Shown here piece after piece: positions 32,231 to 51,000 of a DNA stretch of 64,000 nucleotides. The translations under genes and the position numbers were made by a program. This stretch comes from Curvularia clavata (lineage: Eukaryota): NCBI GenBank assembly GCA_023920165.1, contig CP089281.1, forward strand, positions 496,001-560,000, written 5' to 3'. How positions within the stretch are numbered: the first letter of the stretch is position 1; every line of letters starts with the position of its first letter. Below the pieces are notes generated by a model. It searched no databases, was not told where the DNA came from, and saw nothing but the letters and a program-made list of their open reading frames with translations.

Positions 32231-33454
32231 TTATATTTGTCGGGCGGGCTTCACAGTACCGACGCATGCTCCAAACCCGACTCCCGCGCTGCCGTCACCG
32301 AGTACACCAATGTACCTTACTTCGTCTCCATCGTTGAGGTAGCGTAGTTCAGTTCCATCGCTCAGTTGGGTTGGTGCCTTGCCATTCTTCGTAAGTTCAA
32401 GCAAGCATCCGTGCTCATGCTTTTGTTCGCCCGATACTGTTCCGCTGGCGACCAAGTCTCCAGAGCGAAGCCCGCAACCGCCAATGGTATGGTGCGCTAG
32501 CATGTGTCTGAATGTCCAATACATCGTCTCGAAGCCGACCTTGCATGTTGTTGTCTGGACTCCGTTTCGGATGATTTGTCCTTCGAGTTGAATGCTGTAA
32601 TTTGTGCTCTTGGGGTCGTCCATAAAGGTAGCAACAGGCTCCATTCGCTCTGGTGCAGGCACTTCAAAGGGCTTCAACGCTTCTAGCGTTACGATCCAGG
32701 GTGCAATAGAAGTCATGAAGTTCTTTCCGTTGAAAGGGCCTAGGGGATTCATCTCTAGGCCTTGAATGTCTCTTGCACTCCAGTCGTTCAGCAGAACGAG
32801 GCCGAAGATGTGCTCATCGGCGTCTTTTGCATTAAGGATTGTGCCTGGCTCTACGGGCTTGCCAATGACCGCAGCGACTTCCATCTCGTAATCTAATCCT
32901 CGAGATGGACCAAATATGATTTTCTTTTCAGAAACGGTGTAGTCCTCGATGAACTGGCCCAAGGGTCTTGTGACTGATGCTCCTGATAGGGTGATGGAGG
33001 AACATCGACCCGCGTAACCCACTGGATACTTCTTAAAAGCAGGTGGGAATGCTCGGACTCCCATCACAGCTTCTCCCGCATTTAGAACATGGTTCGCTGA
33101 CGCGCTGTAATCTGTGAAGTCGCCAATGTGGAGTGGCAGATAAAGGCTCACATCATTAATGTTTTCCGCATAATTGCTGTGCAAATTGCTCTTGTAGGTT
33201 TCTTGAATTGCGGATCTCACTTTTGCGTGTACGTCTTTTCCGAGTGCGGCGAAGGTGTTCAAGGTGGGTTCGCGAAAGATAGAGGATAGCGGCGCTGGAA
33301 TTGCTTTGAAGGCATCGTGCTCAGTGATTTCAGCAAGAAATATGACCTGATCCTCAATACGTGTGACACACTGTGGACTTTTCCGCTTCGAAGAGCTTGC
33401 AATTCCGTAAGGAATGTTGTTAATGCTAAAATGCGAGGCGTAACTGTCTGCCAT
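32231..33454 (-). CDS. Fumarylacetoacetate hydrolase-family protein (divergent FahA paralog), single exon
   Basis: SHFSINNIPYGI, GDFTDY..H, PVGYAGRCSS, LDYEMEVA, LLNDWSARDIQ, PLGPFNGKNF, SGTVSG, GCLLE. Confidence 0.92.
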   Translation of the reverse strand: MADSYASHFSINNIPYGIASSSKRKSPQCVTRIEDQVIFLAEITEHDAFKAIPAPLSSIFREPTLNTFAALGKDVHAKVRSAIQETYKSNLHSNYAENINDVSLYLPLHIGDFTDYSASANHVLNAGEAVMGVRAFPPAFKKYPVGYAGRCSSITLSGASVTRPLGQFIEDYTVSEKKIIFGPSRGLDYEMEVAAVIGKPVEPGTILNAKDADEHIFGLVLLNDWSARDIQGLEMNPLGPFNGKNFMTSIAPWIVTLEALKPFEVPAPERMEPVATFMDDPKSTNYSIQLEGQIIRNGVQTTTCKVGFETMYWTFRHMLAHHTIGGCGLRSGDLVASGTVSGEQKHEHGCLLELTKNGKAPTQLSDGTELRYLNDGDEVRYIGVLGDGSAGVGFGACVGTVKPARQI

Positions 33455-34358
33455 TGTGATGGTAGGAACTGGTTATTGAAATGATTTTTGTGAGAGGAGT
33501 ATCTTGTAAACGCTACAATGCTCGATGTTTAGCAAAGCAATAACAGCTTAAGCTCACTGTGTCCCTCCTAGGTCTGAGACCGCAACCGTGATGGCTGTCA
33601 ATGTGTGGGGTCGTAAGTGGATATTTCGGAAGTTGTTCCTCCACATCGGGCCCTCCAGATAGAGTATCAATTGTAATCGGTATCCGAAATGACCGAGATA
33701 CATAACGCGGTATTCATATCGGCTATCTGGTGCTCTATGTGTGCCTGGTGTTAGTATAGTAGCAGGGCCTTTAAACGTCTTGAAGGACAGAGTAGCCCGT
33801 GATCTGTGTAAAGGGGCTTGGGATGTTTGTGTGCTGACCCTACCTTCATCTCAACGAGTCCAGAGCGCCTGAAATGTACTTGCTTATGACCTGGAAACAA
33901 CTGAACAGATGCATTGCCCAGTTAATGCTGTAGGCGGTACGACTCCTTGGGGCAGAGCTCGGTTTAGACAAGTGCACATGTTATCGATGGTTAGCAGGAC
34001 TGAAATGCGATCCGCAAGCGGTCGCCCACGAACCCCTCTTACGCATGACCCCACTAGAGAAGCCGCCTCATAGCTCAAACCACTGTTTTGAATTCCAATG
34101 CGCCATATGTGCAGCATGACCCCGCCCTAAAGGCGCGGGCCCTGCGCCGGCAGATGCAAGTGGTATAGCCGCTCATCAACGCGTCCCCCACATCGGAAGA
34201 CCATGGACGGATTCTTGGACGGTTTCTACATCTGCCCTTTTTTTTTGTTACAGTCTATCAATATCTGGTTTCCTTAAGTTTTTCATCTATGAGATCAAAT
34301 TCAAGCAAAACAACAACCTCACACATCACATTACCACATTTTGCGGCTATCCTTCAGC

Positions 34359-34919
34359 ATGGCCGCTAAAAGCAATATTCCAAACGACCTTCCCAAGATC
34401 AACCGCTTTATCACAACCCACGATCCTGCTACAAAGCAAGCCATCTTCTCCGATGCCGTCCCCGAAGAGCACAAAGTCGATCCCATACCAGGGGCTGAGT
34501 TCCGGCTGGGATATGTCACCAAAGGGTTTCCTGTTGATCTGAACAAGGATGCCGACCTAGCAGTCTACAAACCATATCTAGAGAGCTCTCCTGGCCTTGT
34601 TGTATCGGGAGGTACAGTCCTGCGCTTCGTAGACGTGGCGCCTGGTCATCTGTCGCCGATGCACCGGACTGTATCGCTGGACTATGGAGTTGTGTTGGAG
34701 GGCGAATTCGAGTTGGTGCTGGATTCGGGAGAGACCAGACGCATGAATCGAGGAGATGTTGCGATTCAGAGGGGCACAATGCACGCTTGGAGGAACTTGA
34801 GCACGACATCTTGGGGACGAATGATGTACGTTCTGCAGGAGTGCAAGCCAGTAGAGGTCAATGGGGAAGTGTTGAAAGAAGACTACGGCACCATGAAGGG
34901 CGTGCCAAAGTCGTCATAG
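34359..34919 (+). CDS. Cupin-2 barrel protein (fungal MHRTxSLDYG type)
   Basis: RFITTHD, GGTVLRFVD, SPMHRTVSLDYGVVLEGE, GDVAIQRGTMHAWRN. ATG at 34359 in agcATGg context. Confidence 0.9.
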   Translation: MAAKSNIPNDLPKINRFITTHDPATKQAIFSDAVPEEHKVDPIPGAEFRLGYVTKGFPVDLNKDADLAVYKPYLESSPGLVVSGGTVLRFVDVAPGHLSPMHRTVSLDYGVVLEGEFELVLDSGETRRMNRGDVAIQRGTMHAWRNLSTTSWGRMMYVLQECKPVEVNGEVLKEDYGTMKGVPKSS

Positions 34920-35342: not shown

Positions 35343-37243
35343 ATGTCTGAACAGTTGGAAATCAAAGATGCGCATACTGTCGACGAAACGTCGTTTCCCT
35401 ACATTTTTGAGCAGAACGCTGCGGTTCCGCTCAAGTCATCCTCCAAAGGAATTATCCGTTGCAATGTCTACCGCCCGAAATCAACCAAGGAGGGCACAAA
35501 ACTTCCCGTGTTGGTGACTTACGGACCATATGGAAAAGACATCCACTACAAAGAGTACGCGGGTCGCGTTTTACCACTGTATCCCTGGGACTGACACTTT
35601 ACAGTTTCCACGGAAAGTCATTCTCGGAAGTGAATTCTGAGCACCATTCTGATCACTCAGCATGGGAAACTCCCGACCCAGGCTTCTGGACGAAGCACGA
35701 CTATGCCATTGTGCGCGCGGATGAGCGTGGACTGGGACAATCACCAGGCTTCCTGGACACCATGTCCAGAGGAACCAGCGAGGCTTTCTTCGACGTCGTC
35801 GAGTGGGCAGCTGAGCAACCCTGGTCATCTGGAAAGGTTGGGTTGTTGGGCATCAGCTACTACGCTGGTTCGCAATGGCGTGTAGCGGCGCGAAGACCCA
35901 AAGGTCTAGCTGCTATAATACCGTGGGAGGGTATGAGTGATTATTACCGAGACAGATGCCGCCACGGAGGTATCTTGAGTAACAAGTTCATCGATTTCTG
36001 GTGGTGAGCATCGCTTTCCTCCTTTCCTAAAAAGCTCAACGCTCATGCTCTCAGGAACCGACAAGTCATCACAAACCAGTATGGTCGCCCAGGCCGTGCC
36101 GAGCGAAACTGGGGACCAGACACAGTCGACGGAAATCTATCCGAAGAAGTGCGCGCAAAGAACCGACAAGATCAGACTATTGATACCGCGAAATTCAAGT
36201 ATCGCGACGAGCTGTACTACGCGAGTAAAGAGTATGATATGAGCGACATTGAAGTGCCACTACTCTCAGTCGGCAACTGGGGCGGGATTCTGCTTCACCT
36301 TCGTGGCAACATCGAGGGCTATGTTCACGCCGGATCAGAGTTCAAATACCTTCGAATGATCACAGGCAGGCACGATCTGCCTTTTTACTACAAGGAAGAG
36401 GTCGAGATACAACGAAGCTTCCTTGACGCTTTCCTCAAGGGAGATGACCGAGTTGGCTGGTCCGTAAAGGGCAAGCTGCCTCCAGTCGACATGGTTCTCC
36501 GCAAGGGTGACGTAGGCTTCGATGATGCCGAGAAAGAGAAGGTGTACCAGAGGCGGACTGAGAACGAGTGGCCCATCGCCCGAACTCGTTACACAAAGTT
36601 CTATCTTACTCCATCTCAGAGTCTGACTCAAGTCCAACCCATTGTCAGCAGACCGCAAAAGCTCACATACGAGGCGCTGGGTACGCTGGACGACCCTAGG
36701 CGACTTCAGTTTACCACGGCTCCGTTCGAAGAAGAGACGGAGATTACGGGACACATTGTTGCCCACTTGAACGTCTCGCTCTCAGCTCATGCCATGTACG
36801 ACACACCCAGCGACATTGACCTGTTCCTCACTCTACGCTACATTTCGCCCGAGGGCAAGGAAGTCTACTACACCGGTACCGCCGGCGACCCTATTCCCCT
36901 CGCCAAGGGTTGGTTGCGCGTCAGTCTCCGCAAGACGAACCCCAATCATCCCAAGCACCGGGAGTACCTGCCCTGGAGAGACTACTTCAGCACCGACGTG
37001 CAGCCCGTAGTTCCCGGCGACGTCTATGCCGTTGACGTCGAGGTCTGGCCGACCAACGTTATTGTGGAGAAGGGCGGCAAGATTGTGTTTGAAGTCAGCA
37101 GCGGCGATACACAGGGCAGTGGTATCTTCCAGCATAACCATCCTGAGGATAGGAGTAAAGAGAAGTTTGCTGGGTGGAACCATATCAATTTCAGTGAGAA
37201 GGCGGTTAATTATGTTACGCTGCCGATTGTGCCACCGAAATAG
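35343..37243 (+). CDS. CocE/NonD family (peptidase S15-like) serine ester/amide hydrolase; exons 35343-35554, 35605-36003, 36055-37243
   Basis: PVLVTYGPYGKD, RADERGLGQSPG, WSSGKVGLLGISYYAG (GxSYxG nucleophile elbow), LHLRGN, GRHDLPFY and a C-terminal jelly-roll (EITGH, GWLRVSLR, VEVWPT). Two ~50-nt canonical introns. Confidence 0.92.
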
Positions 37244-37633: not shown

Positions 37634-38497
37634 TCAAGTCCACCTGCCAATCTTGAACTGGCTATTGCACATGTTGACTAACTCCCAGTCTTCAGCACCG
37701 AGTTCGCACTCGTCGGTTTCCTTCTTGCTGCCATCGACAGCACCAGCAACAAAGCATGCGGCCATGTAGTGGTCGTCGGTAGCATGTGCGTCCCTGAACA
37801 TGGGGTGCTTCATCAGTCTTGTAATACCACGGGTGAGACTGCCCTTCTTTGCGCCCTTTCTGCAGCAGCGAATGAAAACGTCCTCGACGCACTGGCGGAA
37901 CTCGAGCATGGGAGCTTCGGGCGGGTATGGCTGGGCAAAGTTGTCCGAGTACCTGAGCATTTGGGCCCAGTGGTTGCGGTAAAGGTTGTGGACGGCGCCT
38001 CCGGTTCCGATGATGAGGTATCCCTCGTCGCGGAACTTGGAGAGGATGTTACCGACGCGGGCGTGCAGGTGTGGGTCAAACCGAGAGTTCATGCTGATAA
38101 TGGTGGTGGGCGGGCATTTCTCTGGGAACATTCTAACGAGAATGAGATATGTGTCGTGGATCCAGTCAAACGACTCGTTGGGTCGGGCATCGATGGCCTT
38201 TTCCCGCAGAGCGGCAATGCATTTCTTTCCGGTCTCGAGGTCCGGGACAAGCTCGTAGTCTTTGTATTTGCGAGGGTGGACATAGGCGACGGGAGATTTG
38301 GCGGGCTTGGGGTTCATGGCAACGTCAATGCGGTTTACGCCACGAGCGTCCCAGTGGGCGCCCATCATGATGACGCCTTTGAAGCCATGTGCGAGGGCTT
38401 CGTCGCCACAGGCCTTCCAGTATGTGGCGGATTTGGACTCTTCGCCAAGCATCATGGTCGAGCCATGGGAGAAGAAGTAGACTGGGGGTATCGCCAT
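37634..38497 (-). CDS. LigB-superfamily (class III) extradiol ring-cleavage dioxygenase, DODA/YgiD-like, 287 aa
   Basis: FFSHGS, GAHW, DWIHD, LIIGTGGAVHNL, AHATDDHY. Start taken as MAIPPVY (38497); the ORF track extends upstream to 38725. Confidence 0.9.
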   Translation of the reverse strand: MAIPPVYFFSHGSTMMLGEESKSATYWKACGDEALAHGFKGVIMMGAHWDARGVNRIDVAMNPKPAKSPVAYVHPRKYKDYELVPDLETGKKCIAALREKAIDARPNESFDWIHDTYLILVRMFPEKCPPTTIISMNSRFDPHLHARVGNILSKFRDEGYLIIGTGGAVHNLYRNHWAQMLRYSDNFAQPYPPEAPMLEFRQCVEDVFIRCCRKGAKKGSLTRGITRLMKHPMFRDAHATDDHYMAACFVAGAVDGSKKETDECELGAEDWELVNMCNSQFKIGRWT

Positions 38498-38729
38498 GGC
38501 TGTGAAGATGGTCTGTGTATACTGCAGCAAGAGAGAGGGGTGAATGTGGGTATTTGGATGGGTGCAGATTGCAGTATTCAAGGATGGCTCTGGCAATGGC
38601 CGTAGTGCTGGTCGTAGGGCATCGACGGTAGAGCAACACAAGTGCCGTTCGCAATGCGGATGCTTTGGAAGCTTATCCCGTCTTAGTCGATGGTCTCTGT
38701 GTGGCCCGGCGGTTTCCCATGGCAAAAGT

Positions 38730-38741
38730 CGTAATGTGGGG
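38730..38741 (+). promoter_or_regulatory. One-mismatch motif CGT-AAT-GTGGGG in the divergent LigB/TF promoter
   Basis: Plus strand CGTAATGTGGGG. Confidence 0.45.
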
Positions 38742-39081
38742 GAGGGTTGGAAGAGATGGATATGGGCCCCATGGCGCTAACCGCAAAGCTCATGTGCGTC
38801 TTAGATTGTGCATATTGTTGGCTAGGGGCAGCGGGCAGAAGCCGGAAAAGGACCGCGTGGCATTGCAAGCGTGGATGGGGTGTGACCAAGGAGAGGATGC
38901 CAAGCAGGCTCTGCCATGTAGCCGCGAGTTAATGTGAAACTAGGAGAGCCCGGGCCCGCCGCGGCTCGGCATGCTCACATGGATGCAGACGCCGACTCCG
39001 CATTCTCTCCCCACACACCAACTTTATCTCCCTCCACTTCCCAGGCCCGATGCTGTCCCTCACCCGATAGCAACTCGCTCC

Positions 39082-42000
39082 ATGATGCAGGCCAGCCCAC
39101 CTCAACCAAAGCCGCTGCCCGCTCATGCCGAAATCGACGCCGAGCACGCCCGCCTGTTCCAGTGCAGCACGTGCAAGCGCTCCTTCACCCGGGCAGATCA
39201 TCTCACCAGACACGTGAGAGCGCGTAAGTCTTCGTCCCACTCGTCCCCGGACGCGAGAAAGGCAAGGTTTCTACTGGTAATACCCTCAAGTCGTCCTCCG
39301 CCTATTACTCGCAACCGACTCGGACGCCTCACCACCTATGCCCTTGCACATTCCACGTCCTTTTAGTTGTAGTTATGCCTCAAAGGTACCCGCCTGTTTT
39401 GTTCCCGTACCAACAAGATAGCTGTCTTGTTGCCTGCTACATGCATGACTTCAGACATCTTTTGGACCCCTGGCTGACCCAGCTCCAACAGACACAAAGT
39501 CCAAGCCGTATATTTGCCCAGTGTGCTCCAAGGGCTTTGCTCGCATGTAAGTACTGCTTAGTATGGCTGTTTCCATCCTCCTCTCGTCGCCCTTGCCAGA
39601 CTCGTCTGACATGCTGCAGTGACTTGCTTAAGCGACATGTAGCAAATCACGATACAGAACCCGCCAGCAAGCGACAGAAGCGCGAAATCTCCCGCGACAC
39701 CAGAGTGGTCCAAGCCTGCGAGGCTTGTTCGCAAAGCCATCTCCGATGCGAAGACGAGAAGCCATGCAGTCGGTGCAAAAAGAAGAAGATTCCCTGCAGG
39801 GTGCCGGATGCGATTCCTGGAGATGACAATGAGGTCCATGAAATTGATGCTGTGCATGCAGCACAGGACTTGCTCGATTTGTCCAACGGCTTCGACTACC
39901 CCTCATCGTTGCCGGGTCAGGGCGGAAGTGCGAATCCATCGGCCTCTGCAACTTCACAGACACCAGAACCTTTTCATGGTTCTGCTGGGCGCAGAGCATC
40001 CGAGGCGAACGCACCCGTCATAAACGCCATGCAACCGCCGCCGCCCAACATTGCTAACGGCCTTGTTCCCATGGACCATCAGTTCGAAGGCCAGGACCCT
40101 ACATCGTCCATGGCCTTTTTTGATAACTCGATCCAGCCCTTTGGCCATACGCCTGGTCAAAATTCTTTCCTGCCAGACTACTTTCGAAACATGCCGCCAT
40201 TCGAGTCTTTCCTTTCTGGACAGGCTACCCCACGTGGCATACTGGACCTCAGTTTTGACATTGACGTTGGTCTCACTGACCTTGATCTTGGATTACTTGA
40301 TCAATACAACTTTCAAGTTCCTTTTGCTGCAGACACGCCATCTACAGATGCTCAAGGTATGGAAAATCATAACCCAGAAACCGACACAGCACCAGGAAGA
40401 GCAGAAGCTTTCAAGCAGAGCGTATGGCGCTACCTTCCTCAGAGCTCTAGAAACCCTGTGGCAGAGCAAGTAAACTTGGCCTTTTCCGATACCGAAAGAG
40501 ACAGCCACAGGCGGTCGCACATCGCACACCGCCGCGTCATATCAGAAAAGTAAGCATGCATCCTATAGAATGACTGGTTCTGTTGCTAATGCTACGTCAC
40601 CTTTGTCCACAGACTTTCTCGCGTCAGTCGTGACCAATTGATGGCCTTGGTCCTGGGAACATGCACTCCGGAGAATGTCAAACGAATCGCATTAGCCTTT
40701 CCCAGTATAGAGTTACTCGATGGGCTGATTCAATACTTTCTCTCTTCCCCATCCCTAGACGCGCCAATGTGGTTCCATCTCCCAACATTCTCTCCCTCGA
40801 AACTGAACCCAGAATTGCTTGCAAGTATAGCGTCAGCTGGAGCCGCGACTATTCCCGATGCATCATTACGAAAGCTTGGATATGCCCTTCACGAGGCATC
40901 TAGAATGGGCCAATCTAGAACTTTCGAGGACGACAACACAGCCATAAGAGACCTTCAACATCTTCAGACCTTCCTTCTTCAGCTCGGAGTGGGTATGTGG
41001 AGCGGTATCAGCAGAAAAATGGAGATTGCAGAAAGCTTTGCCCAGCCGCTGATAACTATGCTTCGGCGGGGCGGCCGCTTCCGGCGGTCGACATGGAAGG
41101 AAATCCGCCCGGAGCCAGACGAGCAAGGATCAGCTTTGGAAAGCAAATGGTTGAGTTGGGTAAACCAAGAGTCGTTCCTTCGCCTCGTCTATCGCGCCTT
41201 TGAGTTTGATAGGCAATCCTCCATGGCATTGCTCAAGCCACCATTGATATCTTATGCAGAGATGCAGCTTCCTTTACCAAGCTCCAACGCTTTATGGCAA
41301 GCTAAATCAGCAACCAGTTGGAAAGCGGCATACTTGAACATGGCGCCAACGGCAACAAAGAAACCCTCGCCATTCGAATGCTTTTTTAATCTGGAACATC
41401 TTGCTCACCATGAATATGCTAGTCAAGTTTTCCTCTATATGATATGGGGCGCGATTTGGGAATATCGCCAGATGTGCACGGTAGCGTCCAAGGCACCATC
41501 CGGATCAAACAACAGCCTCATACTCTCTTCGCGCTATCAGGATCTCATGAAACAGCTCGAGGACTTTAGGCTCAGCTGTCCGCCCACGAACAAGAGTGTT
41601 GAGATAATACTAGAAATCATGCTAGTCCATCTCAATGCGCCTTTGGACGAAATCCAGCTTTTTGCCGGCATCGAAGGACAGGAAGAGGCGCGCAGCGCAT
41701 ACCTTGGCCTGCGAGACTGGGCAAACACTGCGTCAGCACGTCAAGCGCTGTGGCACGCCGGCCAGGTATTACGCGCAGCTGAAGTGGTGCCAAAAGCCTT
41801 GTTGACCAACTTCAACGCCATTGCCGTCTATCATGCTGGGCTAATTCTATGGTGTTATGGATTTCTTAGGCGATCCGCTGCACTGGAATCAACACAGGTC
41901 GATACGACAGTCATACTTAATGGAGACGACTCCCTGAGCGCTCGCAAGTTCATCACATTAGATCGCGGTATCCCATCGATAAGAGCCTATGGGTCGCATA

Positions 42001-42146
42001 CACCGACGCAGTTGAATGATGTCTGTGGGGTTATGGATGGATTAATACATCTCCTTCGGGCACGTCACGATGCTTCAGAGCCGTCACCGCCACTGGTGGG
42101 GAACTTGGTCCAACTTCTGGAAGGTCTACGCTCTGCCATCAAATGA
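39082..42146 (+). CDS. Transcription factor with two C2H2 fingers, a Zn(II)2Cys6 cluster and a fungal-specific TF domain; exons 39082-39223, 39492-39546, 39620-40549, 40613-42146 (start may be 38971 or 38983)
   Basis: Spliced FQCSTCKRSFTRADHLTRHVRAH-TKSKP-YICPVCSKGFARIDLLKRHVANH, then ACEACSQSHLRCEDEKPCSRCKKKKIPC. C-terminal WFHLPTF, WVNQES..RL, LPLP...LWQA..A..W, ARQALWHAGQ. Confidence 0.92.
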
Positions 42147-42819: not shown

Positions 42820-44670
42820 ATGACATCTCTGAGTGCGGCGTTTAAGCTTTCCAAAGAGGAGGTCCGCAATGCCAGGCCCCCTGGAACAGCTACACTAGTT
42901 GGTGAGGCACGATAACAAAAATGCTCAGGATTGCAATAAGCTAACAACTGTTTCCCTCACCAGAACATCTCGAATTGACGGGAGTACAGACGAACAGAGA
43001 TGAAATTCGTCTGGTACCCCAGCCTGCGGCAGACCCGGCAGACCCGCTCAACCTGCCCATGTGGCGAAAGCTGGCAGTGCTGGCTGTCATGTCTATTCAC
43101 CCCTTTGTAGTGAACTTCACATCTTCATCGATAACGAGTGCTTTCCCGGTATATGCGTCGACGCCAGTACTGGGCCTCCCACCACAACCCTTTTCGAAAC
43201 TGAACTATTTCGCCGCCGTCAATATCCTCATGCTAGGAGCATCCAACCTGTGGTGGGTGCCCTTGTCCAACACATTTGGGCGCCGCCCAGTGGTGCTCGT
43301 GAGCCTGTTAATTCTGGTTTTCTCGAGCATGTGGGCAGGGTTGGCGACGAACTTTGGTAGTCTCTTAGCAGCGCGTACATTTATGGGCATTGGAGGAGGA
43401 CCTGCCGATGCTGTCAGCCCCGAGGTGATTGGCGAGGTATTCTTCGTTCATCAGCGCGGACGTGCAATGGTGTGTAGTTTAAGTGTCGATTTCGCAGAAG
43501 TAGGGTACTAACATGCTACGCGTAGGCTATCTACACTTTCTTTTTGGCTTTCGGGTCTCTTGTTGGTGGCTGTGTCGGTGGATACATTGTCGCATCCATG
43601 GGCCTCTCCTGGATACACTGGATGAACGTCCTCCTTTCCGCCATTACCTTCGTTCTCTGCCTCTTATTTCAAGCCGAAACACTGTACAACCGCCCACAAA
43701 CTTCAGTTGCGCCCGATTACGCCGTTGACAACAAGCAAACGGTAGACACCAAAGAGAGCGTTGTCGCCACTGGCACTGTGTCGCCAGCCTCATTCCCTCC
43801 ATACTCACATCTCCGCTCTCTGAGACTTATCTCTTATCAGTCAGGCATCGGTAAGAAGTTCTTAGCCCCGTACAAGACGCTTAGACTGCCTGGAGTATGG
43901 CTGGTGTCGGGCTGGTATGCTGGGCTCGTTGGACTTGTTGTGAGTAAAGATCGCTGCAAGAAACCATGGAAAGACGCTTGGCTGACTGATTTGATTGCAG
44001 GTTACCTCTTCAACAACTGGTCCTCAGTTTGTCGCTGCTCCACCATACCTCTGGGGTAAAGACGTTGGATTGGTTAACGCGGGCGGTCTCATCGGTGCTT
44101 TCCTTGGCTGCGTAAGTATTTTGACCCAGTATCTGCTTCCGCTCATCATCTAACGATCCTTCTTTCTATCTTTAGATTTATACTTACCTACTCACCGACT
44201 TCACCACCAAACGACTTGCAAAAAAGGACCTACACGGCTTTTCTGAGCCTGAATCCCGTCTCGTGACCGCCCTCCCTGCACTCTTCGCCGCCACAATCGG
44301 CTCCCTAATCTTCGGCTTTATCGCCCAGAACCCTTCGCCAAAGGGATGGGTAGGCCTCGAATTCGGATTCGGCCTCATCGCTTTTGGCCTCATGCAGGCA
44401 CCCTCTGTAGGCTTCAACTACATCATCGAGGCGTACGGTGCGCTTGGCGGAGACTGCTTCGTCGCCATTACTACGTCGAGGGCAATTGTCAGCTTTGCAT
44501 GGACCTTTTTCGTCGGAGATTGGTCAATGCACAGGGGCCCAGCTGAACCTTTTGGTATCTTTGCATTGCTCATGGGCTTGTTTGGCTTAATGACCATTCC
44601 AATGCTCATGTGGGGTAAGCGGTTGAGGATCTGGACGGCAAAGTGGGTCCCAGAGGGAAAGATGAATTAA
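42820..44670 (+). CDS. Major facilitator superfamily transporter; exons 42820-42901, 42964-43469, 43526-43939, 44001-44111, 44176-44670
   Basis: LVPQP..DPADPLN.P.WRK, motif A SNTFGRRPV, EVFFVHQRGRAM, ETLYNR, EPESRL and ~12 hydrophobic segments. Four canonical introns keep the frame. Confidence 0.9.
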
Positions 44671-44971: not shown

Positions 44972-46526
44972 CTAGATAAACGCCATTTTCCTCAAGCCTG
45001 CTCTAATCCCAAAGAACAGCGTTGCCCCAATGCACGTCAACAGCGGAATACCGTACACGCCCAAGCCGACAAGGATACCCTGCTCAAAATATCCAATCGC
45101 AATCGACTCTTTCCGCTTCTTCTCCTTGATCTCCTGCGCGGCTCTGCTAAGCAACTCCGTCGCTGCCCTCGCCGAGTCCTTACCACCCAGCACCTTAGCC
45201 AGCGCCATTTGCGACGCAGGGGCAGTGATGTAAGCGGGAGACAGGCGGGTGAAATGCTGCTTTGTATACCTTTTCTCTACGTCAAAGGGTTGAGATGAGG
45301 GTGCCGCGGGGCCAAGCAGGAGGCGCAGTGGGATGTGGTTGGCAAATGAGGCGTCTGCAACAACGAACTGCGAGAGATACTTGTCTGTTTCTGGGGTACC
45401 GAAGTGATATCCTGCTAGCAGTGTCTCTTGAGGATCGAGATCTTCTTCTACAAGGCTGATGGCGTGTTCGAGGGAGGTGATGGATGAGACACAGAAAACA
45501 GGTTGCTGTGATTTTGGTGGCAGACTGAGGAGGTTTGAGAGGTCGACAATGGCACCGTTGTCGCCTTGCGTGACGACGTTGAGTTTCCAAGCTTTGCTTG
45601 AGCAGAGAGTCTGGAAAGTGGAGGATACGCGGGAGGAACGCTGAGTTTCTTTGGGATTGGTGGTGCCGTTGGAGACGCCACCAGAGCCGGCGAGGAAGCG
45701 GAAGGAGTGCTTGAGGACGTGCTCGAGGAAGTCTTTTTTGATGAATTCGTTGACGAGGACGATGTCAGGGGCGTAGGGAGATGTGCCACCGAAGGCGAAG
45801 CGTGCTGTGACGAGTTGTTCGGCGGCGGATGCTAGATCGGCTGTGCGGTCTACGATGGCGACTACTTTGCCTTGGGGTGACACGTGCTGTGAGTATGTCG
45901 GCTGTCTGATTTGTGTTTCTTGAAGCACTTGTAGGCATGCTGAGAGGGATTCTGATGGGGGGTCTGAGGAGATGGCGAGAAAGGTGTCTGATTCCAGGGC
46001 TTCAGCGAGCAGCTTGCGGAGTAAAGATGGAAGAGCACGGAGATTGTTTTCAAGCTGTGGTATTGTTAGTTGCGTGTGTGGATAGATAGTTGACGTTGAA
46101 GCTGACCTTCAGAGCCACACAAGCGCCTGCTGCTACAGCTGCGCTCAAAGGCGAGATGACTGAGAAGAAAGGCGTGTGGTCTTTTCGAGGCTCAATGTAT
46201 GCAACGCCCCAAGGAACTCTCCGATCACCAGCGTTTTTGCCCTTTGTAATTTGGTATTCGTCCTCTAGCTCTTTTGTAACATCAATGGACGCATAGTGCT
46301 CCTTGACCAGATCCAGCCCAATTGCGACCTCGGTAGTTGCTTCCTCGTCTGTTACATGCGTGTCTTGCTTGAGAGCATCTCGGATGGAACTACTATTATT
46401 TCGCAGCGTGTCATGCAGCGCCTTGAGCTGTTTCTGGCGGAAGAAGGCATTGTGGCAGCGCGCTGAGAGGGCCGTCGCCTGGAGACTGTCCAGCGCGGCT
46501 TCGGGGGTGATTGGCGACGACGACAT
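44972..46526 (-). CDS. Aldehyde dehydrogenase-like protein (class 3/fatty-ALDH-like fold) lacking catalytic residues, with a C-terminal TM anchor, 500 aa; exons 46526-46107 and 46054-44972
   Basis: FRQKQLKALH, RRVPWGVAYI, PLSAAVAAGACVALK, AIVDRTADLASAA, ARFAFGGTSPYAPDIVLV. Intron AAG|gtcagc...actaac...acag|CTT. Confidence 0.85.
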
Positions 46527-46701
46527 GATGGTAACTCCGAGACAGGCAACTAAGAAAACGACAACAGAAAGATGATTCAAGAGTGGGGAGAAAGCGACAA
46601 TCTCTACTTTGTAAGCTACAGGAAGTTCTCGGATCGCTTCGGTATTATTTCGAGCCCAAATGACCGGCAATGTGGTGAGACGATGGACAGGGAGAAGCTC
46701 C

Positions 46702-46713
46702 CCCCACATTCCG
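46702..46713 (-). promoter_or_regulatory. Composite motif CGG-AAT-GTGGGG in the divergent ALDH-like/small-protein promoter
   Basis: Plus strand CCCCACATTCCG, near the middle of the 413-nt intergenic region. Confidence 0.65.
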
Positions 46714-46939
46714 AGGATGAACAACGCCCCACCCCAGACTGACCCTGTCTCTCCCGTCCCACCCGCCGCCGCGGTGTCTCCGCGTTTGCAAGCGTCGGAA
46801 AGTGTTCTATTGTAGTTCCGACCTTGTTGCTTACGATTCCCAGACCTGTTACTTTCGCTGACTGCAACCGTCCTGTTTCTGCGGCCGTATCCCAACTATC
46901 CCACGAGAAACGGGACGAAAGAAGCGCACTGCAATCAAG

Positions 46940-47356: not shown

Positions 47357-47772
47357 AAAGGCCGTCTTCGTGGGTGCTTTGTTTGTCAGATTCTGCTTTA
47401 GTCTTCTTGTTTCAATTCCAATTTCAGCTAAAGGAGAATATCGCTTTTTATTCTGCTTTACGGCTCATGTGTTCCAAGCGTACTACATTCGGGATGAAAA
47501 TGGCAACCTTCTCAGTCTGGCGAGATGATTGCTGACTGCCTGTATCTACACCTCTTCATTATTCGAATGTGTTCACACATGCCTCGTTGGTATGCTGACA
47601 TGCATGGTAATCTCATGGTGTGTTACACCGGATGCAGCATCGATATGGTAGTCACCATACGTCCAATTATCCGATCCTCTTAAAGTCCATTCACACGCGA
47701 TATCGACCACACTCTGGAGCGCGTGGGAACCGAACAGGCGATTTCTGGAGTCAGCTGCTGCAAGCCCACTTG

Positions 47773-47784
47773 CGGGAAGTGGAG
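47773..47784 (+). promoter_or_regulatory. Composite motif CGG-GAA-GTGGAG upstream of the monooxygenase-ADC fusion
   Basis: Plus strand CGGGAAGTGGAG, ~175 nt before ATG 47959. Confidence 0.6.
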
Positions 47785-47958
47785 GTGGGCTGCTTTTCGC
47801 CTACCGAATCTTGGTGCAGTTGACTGCCTTGGTATCAAAACCAGAGCAGCCAGATCCGCGGCTGTCGTTCTGCATATTACGCTTCCTTCTTACTCTTCAA
47901 CACTTGCAGTGTTTCATGCCACTTCTCCATTCTTTGCAAAGCACCTTTACTCATCACC

Positions 47959-50167
47959 ATGGGCTTCACAAACGGCACTAACGGAGTTAACGGGCACGAC
48001 ACCAACTCAGAGCGCCCCCTCAACATCACAATATGTGGTGCGGGTATTGGTGGCCTAAGTGCCGCAATCTTCCTCCGACAAAGAGGCCACAAGGTTACTC
48101 TCCTCGAGGCCTCGCGCTTTGCCAACGAACTAGGTGCAGCTGTGCATCTCGCACCCAATGCCAATGGCTTGCTGCGGCGCATGGGCTTGATCCCCGAAGC
48201 CAAGGGAGCTGTGGAGTGTGAGAGGTTGACGCAGCTGCTTCCCAATGGCAAACAGTTGTTCAGCGTAGACTTGAAGCGGGAAGCGGGACGGTGGCAGCAT
48301 CCCTGGCAACTTGCACATCGTGTCAGCCTGCACAGCGAATTGAAGAGATTGGCGACCTGTGAGGAGGGAGCGGGGACGCCAGCAGTGCTGAAGCTCAAGT
48401 CAAAGGTCCTCGACGTCGATCCCAAGGAGGGCGTGGTAGTTTTGGAGAGTGGAGAGAAGATCCAGAGCGACATTGTTGTCGGGGCAGACGGCGTGCATTC
48501 CAAGACTCGTCTGCGTCTTCCAGGAGCAGAGAATATTAAGGTCTTTGGCAGCGGCAAGAGTGCCTTTCGTTTTTTGATTCCAAGGCAGAGGGCGTTCGAT
48601 GAGCCCGACACACGCAAGTTTGCGGACAAGGAGGGCCATCTGGTCATGATCTTTGCACGCGACAGGAGAGTTGTTGTATATCCTACGTCGGATAATACGC
48701 TGCTCAACTTTATTTGTATTCACCCGACTTCGGAAAGCCAGATCAACCCTCAGGAGCCAGAAAGCAGTGGTTGGCAGAACCAAGGTAACCTCGACAAGAT
48801 GCTGGAAGTGTACAAGGACTTCGAGCCGGCGGTCCTGAAGCTGCTGAGTATGGCGGATGAAGAGACGCTTAAAGTGTGGGAGTTGTTGGATATGGATCAG
48901 CTGCCGACTTGGACACATGAGAAGCTGGTTCTCATTGGAGACGCCGCACATCCATTTACGCCACGTAAGTCAATCCTCTTTTCCTAACAAAACGTGTGAA
49001 GTTCTCAAACTCATCATCCCTCTAGATCAAGGTCAAGGTGCTGGTCAAGCCATCGAAGATGCCGCCTCTCTCGCCGTGATGCTACCCCTGGGCGTGCCTC
49101 TTGAATCCATTCCCGCACGTCTCAAACTCTACGAGAAATGCCGATACGAACGAGCCAGTGCCATTCAAGAGTACTCCCGGATAGCAGGCAAAGATCTCGG
49201 CTCCGGTCCACCCATCGACACATACAAATTCACAGACTACAACTTCGGTCACGATGAATGGGACCACTCAAATCAAATGCTGCGAAAATGGGAATGGGAA
49301 AACAACAAGAATCTCCTCTGGAGAATGCCCACTGCCTTTGGCCCCATGCCCGGTCCCCGACAAGACTTCCACGGCCGACCAAGAGACGGCTCGAGCGCTA
49401 CCTTCAAAACTGCCAGCATTAAGTTTAAGACCAGCAGGACCGTCTTGGAGAATCTGTTGCCAAGTGAAGAGCTGAAATTCGCTGCTGCAGACACCACCGC
49501 CTACGCCACTTTTTCCGCAACCCAACTCGACAATCTTGAGTGGCTGGGCGGCCGCGGCTATAATCACTTTGGTCTCTACATCCACGGGATTCAGTACACG
49601 AAGGCCAACGGTGAAACAGTCGTAGGCACCTACCTCCCTGTTCTCTTCGAGAATCTCGCCGACCCCATTCTAAGTGGACGCGACGAACTCGGGTTCCCCA
49701 AGGTTTATGCCGAGCTAGACGTTTCCCACTCCGACGACAGGTGTACCCTTGAAGCAGGTTGGATGTCGTCGAAATTCTGTCGCATGGTGCTGTCAGGTCT
49801 ACAGCCTTCCTCTGCCGCAGAGCAAGCTGCAGCAGCGCCATTGCCTCGCGATGACGGTCTCATTTTCCACAAGTACATTCCTGCCACGGGCAGTCTGGCT
49901 AGCAAGCAGCCGTCTCAGCCCGATGTTGAGTACACTGCTTTCCTGCCTAGCGTCGAGGACGCACAGAGTGTAGAGAAGAAGGTAGAGTCGACGATGGTTG
50001 CGTCTGGGGCGGAAATTGCGTTTGACACATTGGACTGGAAGGCTCTGCCGACGCTGCATCACATTGTGAACAGGTTGCAGGAGGTGCCGGTGTATGGTGT
50101 TGTGGAGGCAAAGGTGGTACGGGGGACGGGCGTGAGCGATGTTAGGGTGGTACAGAGGCTGGGTTGA
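47959..50167 (+). CDS. Class A FAD-dependent aromatic monooxygenase (salicylate-hydroxylase-like) fused to a C-terminal acetoacetate-decarboxylase-like domain, 715 aa; exons 47959-48964 and 49026-50167
   Basis: GAGIGGL, VVGADGVHS and LIGDAAHPFTP-HQGQGAGQAIEDA across a 61-nt intron. C-terminal domain with LEWLGGRGY, YLPVLFEN, PILSGRDELGFPK, LPTLHHIV. Confidence 0.92.
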
Positions 50168-51000
50168 TAGGGGATGTCCAGCCATGTATATAACACATAC
50201 ACATACAAATATGCATACGAGATTTACTTGAAGTTTCCCTTGGCCGTCAATGTAGACTTGGTAGCAATGACACTGAAGAAGTACGGTCCCTATTTTGTAC
50301 TAGGCTTTGAAAATATTTTTCTGTTCTTTCATTCTCTCATCTACCACTTTCCTCCTTTACCTTCCCCCTACCTACAGAAAAGGGGAAAGGGGAATCTACT
50401 TAACCGAGACCAGATGTACGCTGTATCTCTGTTTATGTAAAACAAAAAAACAACGTGCTATGTATATATGTAGTATATTGGGAATGACGAAGAGACGGGG
50501 GGTATTATCGAGGTTTCCATCTATCCGAAAAAACGGTCCATAACATCCCAGGATAGAGACAAAAGAAAGTCAAAACACCATACTGGACCCCCTTTATAGA
50601 TGCAAACGATGGTAACATAGGAAAGAAAAGGACAAAAAGAGAGAGAAGCCCTTCTATGTAAGCTCTCCACGGTATTGTTCCACCAGGGATACGAACGTCG
50701 TTTCCCTTATCCTTCCAACTTTCCCAAACAGATACTCTCCTGCAGCCTTGGGTTTGAACAGAAGAGGGGAAAAAAAGAATATAGAAAAGTTCTATACGGA
50801 GCCACAAGAACATGTGCCGAGAATGCCATTTCCCAAAATGGGTCCTAAAACATGGCAATTTGAATGCCCACAAAAACCGTATGCCAGTCTTTCTATAATG
50901 GAGCAAGACATACCGACCAACGGGTGGGAAACAGGGTACTGAAGAAACGAAGGATGGGACAAAAAAAGAAAGAGCGAGAAGAAATGCAACATCAAAGTGT

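Follow-up and report, generated by a model that had tools for sequence, protein, structure and literature searches.

A fungal flavin monooxygenase fused to an acetoacetate-decarboxylase-like domain, probably from a little-known aromatic ring-opening pathway

Introduction

True acetoacetate decarboxylases (ADCs) have been solved from Clostridium acetobutylicum (3bh2), Chromobacterium violaceum (3bgt) and Legionella (3c8w). The same fold is found in Sbi00515 (4zbo, 4zbt, 6eej), Swit_4259 (5upb) and MppR (4jm3 to 4jme), for which the titles of the Protein Data Bank (PDB) entries indicate Schiff-base chemistry on 2-oxo acids. A further member, the 'acetoacetate decarboxylase' YP_001047042.1 of Methanoculleus marisnigri, is a structural-genomics entry (3cmb). 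Here we analyse a gene of Curvularia clavata (GenBank assembly GCA_023920165.1, contig CP089281.1) whose product joins a flavin monooxygenase to an ADC-like domain. The gene lies at 47959-50167 on the plus strand of the window, that is, the whole stretch of 64,000 nucleotides analysed (positions 496,001 to 560,000 of the contig), and all positions below are those of the window.

To our knowledge, aromatic breakdown in fungi has been described almost wholly via intradiol (ortho) cleavage. Extradiol dioxygenases are less common in fungi according to the available part of a 2025 review (PMC12388069).

The locus resembles the described systems in part. The decarboxylative hydroxylases 8x38, 8gsm, PhzS, NicC and NahG match the monooxygenase half with E values from 1.6e-38 to 1.7e-21 and carry the same motifs, but they have about 400-500 residues and no ADC domain. 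True ADCs share the fold of the fusion domain, whereas their sequence likeness to it is marginal and they are not fused to a monooxygenase. Sbi00515, Swit_4259 and MppR share the fold as well and the fusion domain may work alike, with kinship by fold only, at 11-17% identity in structural alignments. The 3cmb protein has a GRE..G.PK stretch with a single Lys like the fusion; unlike it, 3cmb is an archaeal, stand-alone protein of 283 residues, and being uncharacterised it lends no activity. In Saccharolobus solfataricus, the phenol-induced ADC-like genes Sso1221 and Sso1222 lie next to a catechol 2,3-dioxygenase gene and share the proposed pathway context with the fusion. They differ from it in being archaeal, stand-alone and MppR-like at 21-29% identity, and in the available part of the source their function is likewise only proposed (PMC7820114).

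We hold it very probable that both domains of the C. clavata protein are catalytic parts of one protein. Tentatively, with a rough probability of 0.45, we propose that the ADC-like domain acts on a ring-fission product, which would make the protein a bifunctional enzyme of a conserved fungal aromatic-breakdown cluster.

Results and discussion

Gene structure and transcripts

Joining 47959-48964 to 49026-50167 on the plus strand by script gave a coding sequence of 2148 nucleotides with a 715-residue product. The frame begins with the ATG at 47959, is open up to 48964, and after the intron runs stop-free through to the TGA at 50165-50167. The intron (48965..49025, plus strand) has 61 nucleotides with GT..AG ends; it starts with GTAAGT, contains a branch-like CTAAC and ends in TAG. 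Its removal restores a split His codon (His336) and thereby the motif GDAAHPFTPHQGQG from residue 327, as had been read from the genomic sequence in the original prediction. Residues 1-335 and the first base of the His336 codon come from exon 1 (47959..48964), which covers most of the monooxygenase domain. Exon 2 (49026..50167) supplies the C-terminal monooxygenase helices and, after them, the ADC-like domain, and ends with the TGA. The spliced product is identical, letter for letter, to a protein (P0001) named salicylate hydroxylase of Curvularia clavata in NCBI and UniRef.

Contigs from four public runs (X1, X3, X7 and X11), whose kind is recorded only as guessed RNA, were placed on 47400-50700; they tell neither expression level nor strand. 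Contigs of X1, X3 and X7, which come from three studies, join 48964 to 49026 and omit exactly the 61 nucleotides between, with GT..AG ends. A 3158-nucleotide contig (X3 record 15) corresponds to 47400-48964 plus 49026-50214, and a 1969-nucleotide contig (X7 record 18) to 48079-48964 plus 49026-50108, both crossing the domain boundary at about 49320 with no second joint. Another contig (X1 record 5) ends at 50232 and continues with 17 A absent from the genome, a poly(A) tail that places the poly(A) addition site at 50232 (plus strand), 65 nucleotides past the stop. The 5' ends of the X1 and X7 contigs lie at 47912 and 47911. X11 gave short pieces of the gene only, with no joint at the intron, and nothing was drawn from this run. 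The gene is transcribed into a single spliced, polyadenylated mRNA for one 715-residue two-domain protein. These contigs supply the junction transcripts for which reverse transcription PCR had been suggested, as they span both domains and do not end before the second.

Three further features of the contigs were observed. The X3 contig reaches at least 560 nucleotides 5' of the ATG, past 47400, in comparison with the starts of X1 and X7; it may have a long alternative 5' leader or overlap a neighbouring transcript. A 570-nucleotide contig (X1 record 4) matches only 49031-49066 (36 bases); its flanks, different in sequence, still code for the DAAHPFTPHQ motif. It probably stems from transcription of a monooxygenase paralogue in the same organism. 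In one X11 contig, 75 nucleotides within 50587-50663 are missing; the gap has CC..AG ends, and the match has six mismatches and a side of 31 letters. The gap may be an opposite-strand intron of the downstream gene, or the contig may be foreign.

Flavin monooxygenase domain

The GADG motif defines the group-A flavin monooxygenases, whose fingerprints are GxGxxG, DG and GD. In the C. clavata protein all of these are present. For their conservation we used the fused homologues: exon 2 as query against proteins of 665-2000 residues gave 366 matches at E ≤0.001, and 112 of the 120 listed, with identity down to 50%, were aligned. The remaining eight (P0033, P0046, P0051, P0052, P0063, P0068, P0072 and P0089) fall outside 680-745 residues and were left out. 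The motifs are invariant in the 112 aligned homologues, with G27, G29 and G32 of the dinucleotide-binding GxGxxG motif (G27-G32, 48037..48054, plus strand), D177 and G178 of the GADG motif (G175-G178, 48481..48492, plus strand), and G327, D328, A330, H331, P332 and P335 of the GD motif GDAAHPFTPHQGQG (48937..49039, plus strand), which is interrupted by the intron and whole only once spliced.

Pfam FAD_binding_3 was found on exon 1 with an E value of 2.3e-14 (53.8 bits against a curated cut-off of 22). The best solved match to the N-terminal 335 residues is the decarboxylative vanillate 1-hydroxylase 8x38 (E 1.6e-38), and the closest matches also include 8r2t, 8gsm, PhzS-type enzymes, 6-hydroxynicotinate 3-monooxygenase, tropone 2-monooxygenase and salicylate hydroxylase; one solved chain among the best relatives is named 4-hydroxybenzoate decarboxylase. 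The solved salicylate hydroxylase also matches residues 1-55 of exon 2, which assigns these to the C-terminal helices of the monooxygenase. By its motifs and relatives, the N-terminal half is classed as an intact group-A flavin monooxygenase nearest to decarboxylative hydroxylases.

Fold and kinship of the ADC-like domain

Pfam ADC (PF06314) matches residues 120-286 of exon 2 with an E value of 2.6e-14 (53.7 bits against a curated cut-off of 29.8), so both of the families expected in the original prediction were recovered. The domain extends from about W434 to G715 (49319..50164, plus strand) and begins approximately five residues past the last monooxygenase helix. An AlphaFold2 model of residues 413-715, built with 64 sequences, has a mean predicted local distance difference test (pLDDT) score of 84.8 and a predicted template modelling (pTM) score of 0.82. 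Foldseek with this model returned 24 matches at E ≤0.001, of which the 17 shown all belong to the ADC superfamily and the rest are further chains of the same entries. The E values range from 7e-21 to 3.5e-12, with 3cmb leading (E 7e-21, TM 0.69/0.78). A search independent of Foldseek gave the same picture. The uncharacterised 3cmb superimposes with a Z of 24.6 and a root mean square deviation (RMSD) of 3.1 Å over 259 residues, the true ADC 3bh2 with a Z of 20.5 (RMSD 3.4 Å over 234), Sbi00515 (4zbo) with 19.7 (3.4 Å over 236), Swit_4259 (5upb) with 19.4 (3.3 Å over 228) and MppR (4jm3) with 19.1 (3.1 Å over 225). After these five ADC-superfamily entries, the next Z is 6.4. The modelling confirms a predicted ADC double-barrel fold for the C-terminal half.

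Kinship within the superfamily is narrower. The sole clear sequence relative among solved structures is 3cmb, with an E value of 7.8e-11 by single sequence and 3.8e-21 by profile. The true ADC 3bh2 reaches only 1.2 by profile, which does not bear out a close kinship to the characterised ADCs. MppR, Sbi00515 and Swit_4259 gave no sequence match at E up to 10 with single-sequence, profile or stand-alone-relative queries. The domain had originally been likened to proteins of the MppR/Sbi00515 type; this assignment was not supported, since the nearest solved relative is by far 3cmb and the Z to MppR and Sbi00515 is no better than that to true ADC. As the Z values to true ADC and to Sbi00515, Swit_4259 and MppR are similar, the fold does not distinguish hydratase or aldolase chemistry from that of a decarboxylase.

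The same closeness to the aldolase-dehydratases (19.1-19.7) as to ADC would suit a role on the entry side of a pathway. The domain would then be a hydratase-aldolase, working in reverse of the aldol-dehydration of Sbi00515 and Swit_4259, that yields pyruvate and an aromatic aldehyde by cleavage of an aryl-substituted 2-oxo-enoate; an aldehyde dehydrogenase (ALDH) would make the acid and the monooxygenase would hydroxylate it. Alternatively, the domain would handle the direct product of the monooxygenase. The PDB titles, which show Schiff-base complexes with pyruvate and aryl aldehyde adducts, also favour such a role, and gene fusions usually join adjacent steps. It is disfavoured by the absence of any sequence match to Sbi00515, Swit_4259 and MppR in the searches above, and our data suggest no natural aryl-oxo-enoate substrate. 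We return to it below with the neighbouring genes.

The AlphaFold2 model of the full-length protein has a pLDDT of 86.5 and a pTM of 0.78, which is high for two domains and hints at a fixed inter-domain packing. A rigid packing on the monooxygenase would also be expected if the C-terminal half served oligomerisation or stabilisation without a reaction of its own, like the extra C-terminal domain of phenol hydroxylases, and proteins of the ADC superfamily form tight oligomers. The conserved residues of the domain bear on this directly.

The candidate Schiff-base lysine

After the junction the open frame runs, as had been noted, into a domain containing GRDELGFPK (residues 553-561). Its Lys561, the candidate Schiff-base lysine, is encoded by AAG at 49700..49702 (plus strand) and is a lysine in 112 of the 112 fused homologues. 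R447, Y514, H522, E544, D548, R554 and E556 are each conserved to the same degree, and H516 is found in 110 of the 112. Arg447 (49358..49360, plus strand) is part of the N-terminal motif of the domain, FGPMPGPRQ, which is shared with stand-alone homologues; it may correspond to Arg29 of ADC. For a scaffold, an invariant lysine with seven other invariant polar residues, kept also in stand-alone homologues, would be needless. In favour of a scaffold, the lysine is kept in only 13 of 15 hand-chosen sequences of a further alignment (A3), being replaced by Ile in P0431 and by Arg in P0406. These two are ADC-only proteins and may be inactive or differently acting paralogues. Overall, a mainly structural C-terminal domain seems to us very unlikely.

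The residue after Lys561 is Leu in 85, Val in 25, Ile in one and Met in one of the 112 homologues and never Lys, so the PKK pair of true ADC is absent and the original call of a single candidate lysine stands. That clostridial ADC has PKK was borne out by counting along the 3bh2 chain, in which GRELSAYPKK corresponds to residues 107-116 and the pair to K115 and K116; the corresponding stretch in 3c8w and 3bgt is GFPKK. In the alignment to 3cmb, GRDELGFPKV of the window's protein is matched by GREQTGIPKI. In the ungapped register of GRDELGFPK with GRELSAYPK, K561 falls on K115 and V562 on K116, a placement drawn from sequence only. The HMMER alignment to 3bh2 is gapped and picks a later PK, in a match that is not significant. 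The register of K561 on K115 is supported by a stand-alone relative (L036), whose GREELGFPKI aligns without gaps with GREIWGFPKK of 3c8w and GRELWGFPKK of 3bgt.

Glu76 has a role near the lysine of ADC. In a weak pairwise alignment of L036 to 3bh2, Ile lies opposite Glu76. At this position the stand-alone forms and 3cmb have Ile or Leu, and the matching column of the fungal proteins is His516. The domain thus appears to retain the lysine of true ADCs and to lack their other two hallmarks, the second Lys and, as far as the weak alignment goes, Glu76.

These residues bear on whether the domain is a true acetoacetate decarboxylase, consuming acetoacetate released by a neighbouring FAH enzyme. The Pfam ADC match would agree with such an activity, as would a gene with FAH and fumarylacetoacetase N-terminal domains 15 kb upstream. 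It is opposed by the missing second lysine of PKK in all 112 homologues, the non-Glu residue at the weakly aligned Glu76 position and the marginal profile match to 3bh2. With FAH found in just 1 of 18 related loci (see below), we consider this activity extremely unlikely. Decarboxylation of a beta-keto acid released by the FAH paralogue, offered originally as a second option, is weakened by the same count.

Distribution of the fusion

All 120 listed proteins of the 366 matches have both PF01494 and PF06314 in precomputed Pfam annotation. Most have 684-776 residues, and their hosts are Dothideomycetes, Sordariomycetes, Eurotiomycetes and Leotiomycetes. Cluster look-ups added AN3392 of Aspergillus nidulans (710 residues, 'salicylate hydroxylase, putative') as well as 705-residue proteins of A. 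fumigatus. Being widespread, and already present in the annotation of many ascomycete genomes, the fusion is no rarity. In the literature, AN3392 has one mention, as the edge of an automatic cluster call. The A. niger gacA/phyA product (NRRL3_04659) was considered as a possible characterised member; in their available parts, the papers call it a monooxygenase and mention no ADC domain. Papers on the 3-hydroxyanthranilate cluster (an A. terreus paper and the ASPDH preprint) were also considered and set aside, as in their available parts the fusion family is not involved.

A scan with the ADC part over 1.84 billion representatives found 679 proteins at E ≤0.001 and 172 at E ≤1e-30. The best 150 representatives comprise 36 proteins that extend into the monooxygenase core, 60 with the ADC part alone and 54 in which just the C-terminal helices of the monooxygenase remain. 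These 54 are gene-caller fragments of fused genes. Similarly, the matches of about 365 residues from a search for proteins of similar length, which seemed to stand alone, were rejected because most are exon-2 open reading frames (ORFs) that prokaryotic gene finders had called within fused genes.

A metagenome scan returned 80 loci, and 18 with a fused relative (33-81% identity) were scanned further. Three of them (L001, L002 and L005) looked like intron-free fused ORFs and were rejected as such, since each carries an in-frame, stop-free GTAAGT or GTACGT..AG stretch at the same codon. This intron splits the same His codon (window 48964/49026), has a length that is a multiple of three (51 nucleotides in L001) and contains no stops, so that six-frame ORFs read through it. 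Only L018 (40% identity) lacks an intron there and has GDAAHAFLPHQGQG and GREEIHFPK in one uninterrupted ORF of 694 residues.

Stand-alone homologues and their neighbours

Stand-alone ADC-like homologues of about 30% identity were examined in nine loci, with Pfam on 38 of 74 ORFs. They begin at an RMP..FGP..PGPRQ motif. Compact ORFs, a TetR regulator and an OprB porin give their loci a bacterial look. In L039 three genes lie head to tail: that of a VOC extradiol dioxygenase, one of the FAH family and the ADC-like gene. In L069 the ADC-like gene is grouped with an ALDH and a VOC dioxygenase, alongside a DHDPS-type aldolase and a GCV_T-type gene; in L068 no linkage to a VOC dioxygenase was found. 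An extradiol dioxygenase beside the ADC-like gene in two of three long, apparently bacterial loci links this ADC branch to extradiol cleavage. The VOC dioxygenase family of these loci is unrelated to LigB.

Gene neighbourhood in the window and in related fungal loci

The neighbours in the window were read from six-frame ORFs and Pfam over 32-50 kb. The farthest is the FAH gene mentioned above (32234..33472, minus strand). It is followed by a cupin (34293..34916, plus strand), an S15/CocE-type hydrolase (35411..37240, plus strand), a LigB-family extradiol dioxygenase (37637..38776, minus strand; Pfam LigB E 1.8e-8), a Zn2Cys6 transcription factor (39228..42143, plus strand) and an MFS transporter (42945..44667, plus strand). 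The hydrolase is split into the adjacent ORFs 35411-36004 and 36008-37240, which suggests a short intron or a frame change between its catalytic and PepX_C parts. The solved proteins closest to the LigB gene product are YgiD (E 8.7e-13) and the plant and fungal 4,5-DOPA dioxygenases (4e-12). By these matches it is assigned to the YgiD/4,5-DOPA-dioxygenase (DODA) type and not to the protocatechuate or gallate dioxygenase type. Directly upstream of the fusion gene and divergently transcribed lies a divergent ALDH-like gene (44975..46895, minus strand), with a weak Aldedh match (E 7.3e-5) and a match to the solved ALDH 6k0z (E 5.5e-4); Atlas look-ups gave no more than leads, to DUF1487 and ALDH.

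The 18 fused loci were annotated with Pfam on 133 of 176 ORFs of at least 140 residues in nine of them, after nested and antisense ORFs had been dropped by eye, and on 89 of 104 ORFs of at least 170 residues in the other nine. Since many flanks are below 8 kb (7 of the 18 contigs do not reach 8.3 kb) and only the available flanks were counted, the neighbour counts are lower bounds. LigB was found in L009, L020, L024 and L027 (4/18), the S15 hydrolase in L013, L015, L020 and L027 (4/18), an ALDH-like gene in L005, L009, L015 and L020 (4/18), a cupin in L020 and L028 (2/18) and FAH in L027 (1/18); eight of the 18 loci carry at least one of the five. The locus L009 (68% identity) has the order of the window, with LigB, transcription factor, MFS, ALDH and fusion gene, and most of the gene set is carried by L020 (46%) and L027 (40%). 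The ALDH matches that adjoin the fusion in L005, L009, L015 and L020 are faint, as in the window, and by sequence this neighbour looks like a conserved, very divergent partner of the ALDH superfamily.

In the window, L005 and L009 the fusion gene directly adjoins an ALDH-like gene, which is again what the entry-side hydratase-aldolase would lead one to expect. A separate DHDPS-type aldolase beside the ADC-like gene in L069 speaks against it. On balance, we regard this role as unlikely.

The DODA type of the LigB enzyme raises the alternative of a biosynthetic cluster, in which the dioxygenase would open a catechol (compare betalamic acid and muscaflavin) and the seco keto acid would then be cyclised or dehydrated by the ADC-like domain in the manner of MppR. 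Biosynthetic clusters, too, contain transcription factors and MFS transporters. MppR is a cyclase of the ADC fold by its PDB titles and by the available part of the source (10.1101/2023.03.21.533663). This alternative is countered by the lack of any polyketide synthase, non-ribosomal peptide synthetase or terpene synthase among the ORFs scanned in 32-50 kb. FAH, ALDH and S15 hydrolase are typical catabolic genes, and the stand-alone homologues occur in catabolic-looking operons. We therefore judge a biosynthetic cluster quite improbable.

A second flavour of the cluster was also observed. In L006, L013 and L015 the fusion occurs with a histidinol-dehydrogenase paralogue plus an SDR (short-chain dehydrogenase/reductase); the S15 hydrolase and ALDH accompany this pair in some loci. 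The same pairing is found in Aspergillus section Fumigati (A. fumigatus and A. fischeri), as judged by adjacent accession numbers.

Proposed catalytic role

The recurring neighbours of the fusion, together with stand-alone homologues beside extradiol dioxygenases, make a role on ring-fission keto acids the best reading. We propose that the monooxygenase would give a diol by hydroxylating a phenolic acid, which would probably lose its carboxyl group in the reaction, as happens with the closest solved relatives of the enzyme. The neighbouring DODA-type LigB dioxygenase would open the ring of this diol, and the divergent ALDH would oxidise the resulting ring-fission aldehyde. At its 2-oxo group, the ring-fission acid would then form an imine with Lys561 of the ADC-like domain, and this imine would serve as an electron sink. 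Through this imine, the domain might remove the distal carboxylate in a vinylogous beta-keto-acid decarboxylation, hydrate or cleave the enoate, or do both. In bacteria, the equivalent vinylogous decarboxylation is the task of 4-oxalocrotonate decarboxylase. That an early and a late step of the pathway would share one polypeptide is something we infer only.

Several observations weigh against this role. The protein of the closest solved structure, 3cmb, is uncharacterised. LigB is found in only 4 of the 18 fused loci, none of the LigB, S15, ALDH-like, cupin and FAH genes occurs in the available flanks of 10 of the 18, and the three loci with the histidinol-dehydrogenase paralogue have no LigB in their available flanks. 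If the alignment that places His516 at Glu76 is right, the decarboxylase machinery would differ from that of ADC. Fusions more often join consecutive steps, whereas the proposed model joins non-consecutive ones. No functional study turned up when the literature was searched for the fusion or its domains in fungi, in a coverage without supplements, which may list expression of orthologues. For the original prediction that the domain processes the product of LigB meta-cleavage, the link to extradiol cleavage has comparative support, namely LigB in 4 of 18 fused loci and a VOC dioxygenase in two of three long stand-alone loci; the processing of the keto acid itself we infer.

A broader proposal is doubtful but worth stating. 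The ADC-fold domain might be a cofactor-free lysine-imine enzyme that in fungi replaces the metal-dependent, FAH-fold 4-oxalocrotonate decarboxylase or hydratase known from meta-cleavage pathways of bacteria. Together with the DODA-type LigB and the divergent ALDH, it might form an undescribed extradiol pathway, widespread in filamentous ascomycetes, in which an enzyme of the lower pathway is fused to the entry hydroxylase.

Implications

The fusion, the DODA-type LigB, the divergent ALDH and the S15 hydrolase form a gene set conserved down to about 40% identity, which points to an unassigned meta-type route in fungi. With their operon contexts, the fusion and its stand-alone relatives give a first concrete substrate hypothesis for the 3cmb-like branch of the ADC superfamily. 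As A. nidulans (AN3392) and A. fumigatus, species of model and clinical standing, also carry the fusion, it is directly testable there. It probably belongs to a little-known pathway of aromatic ring opening.

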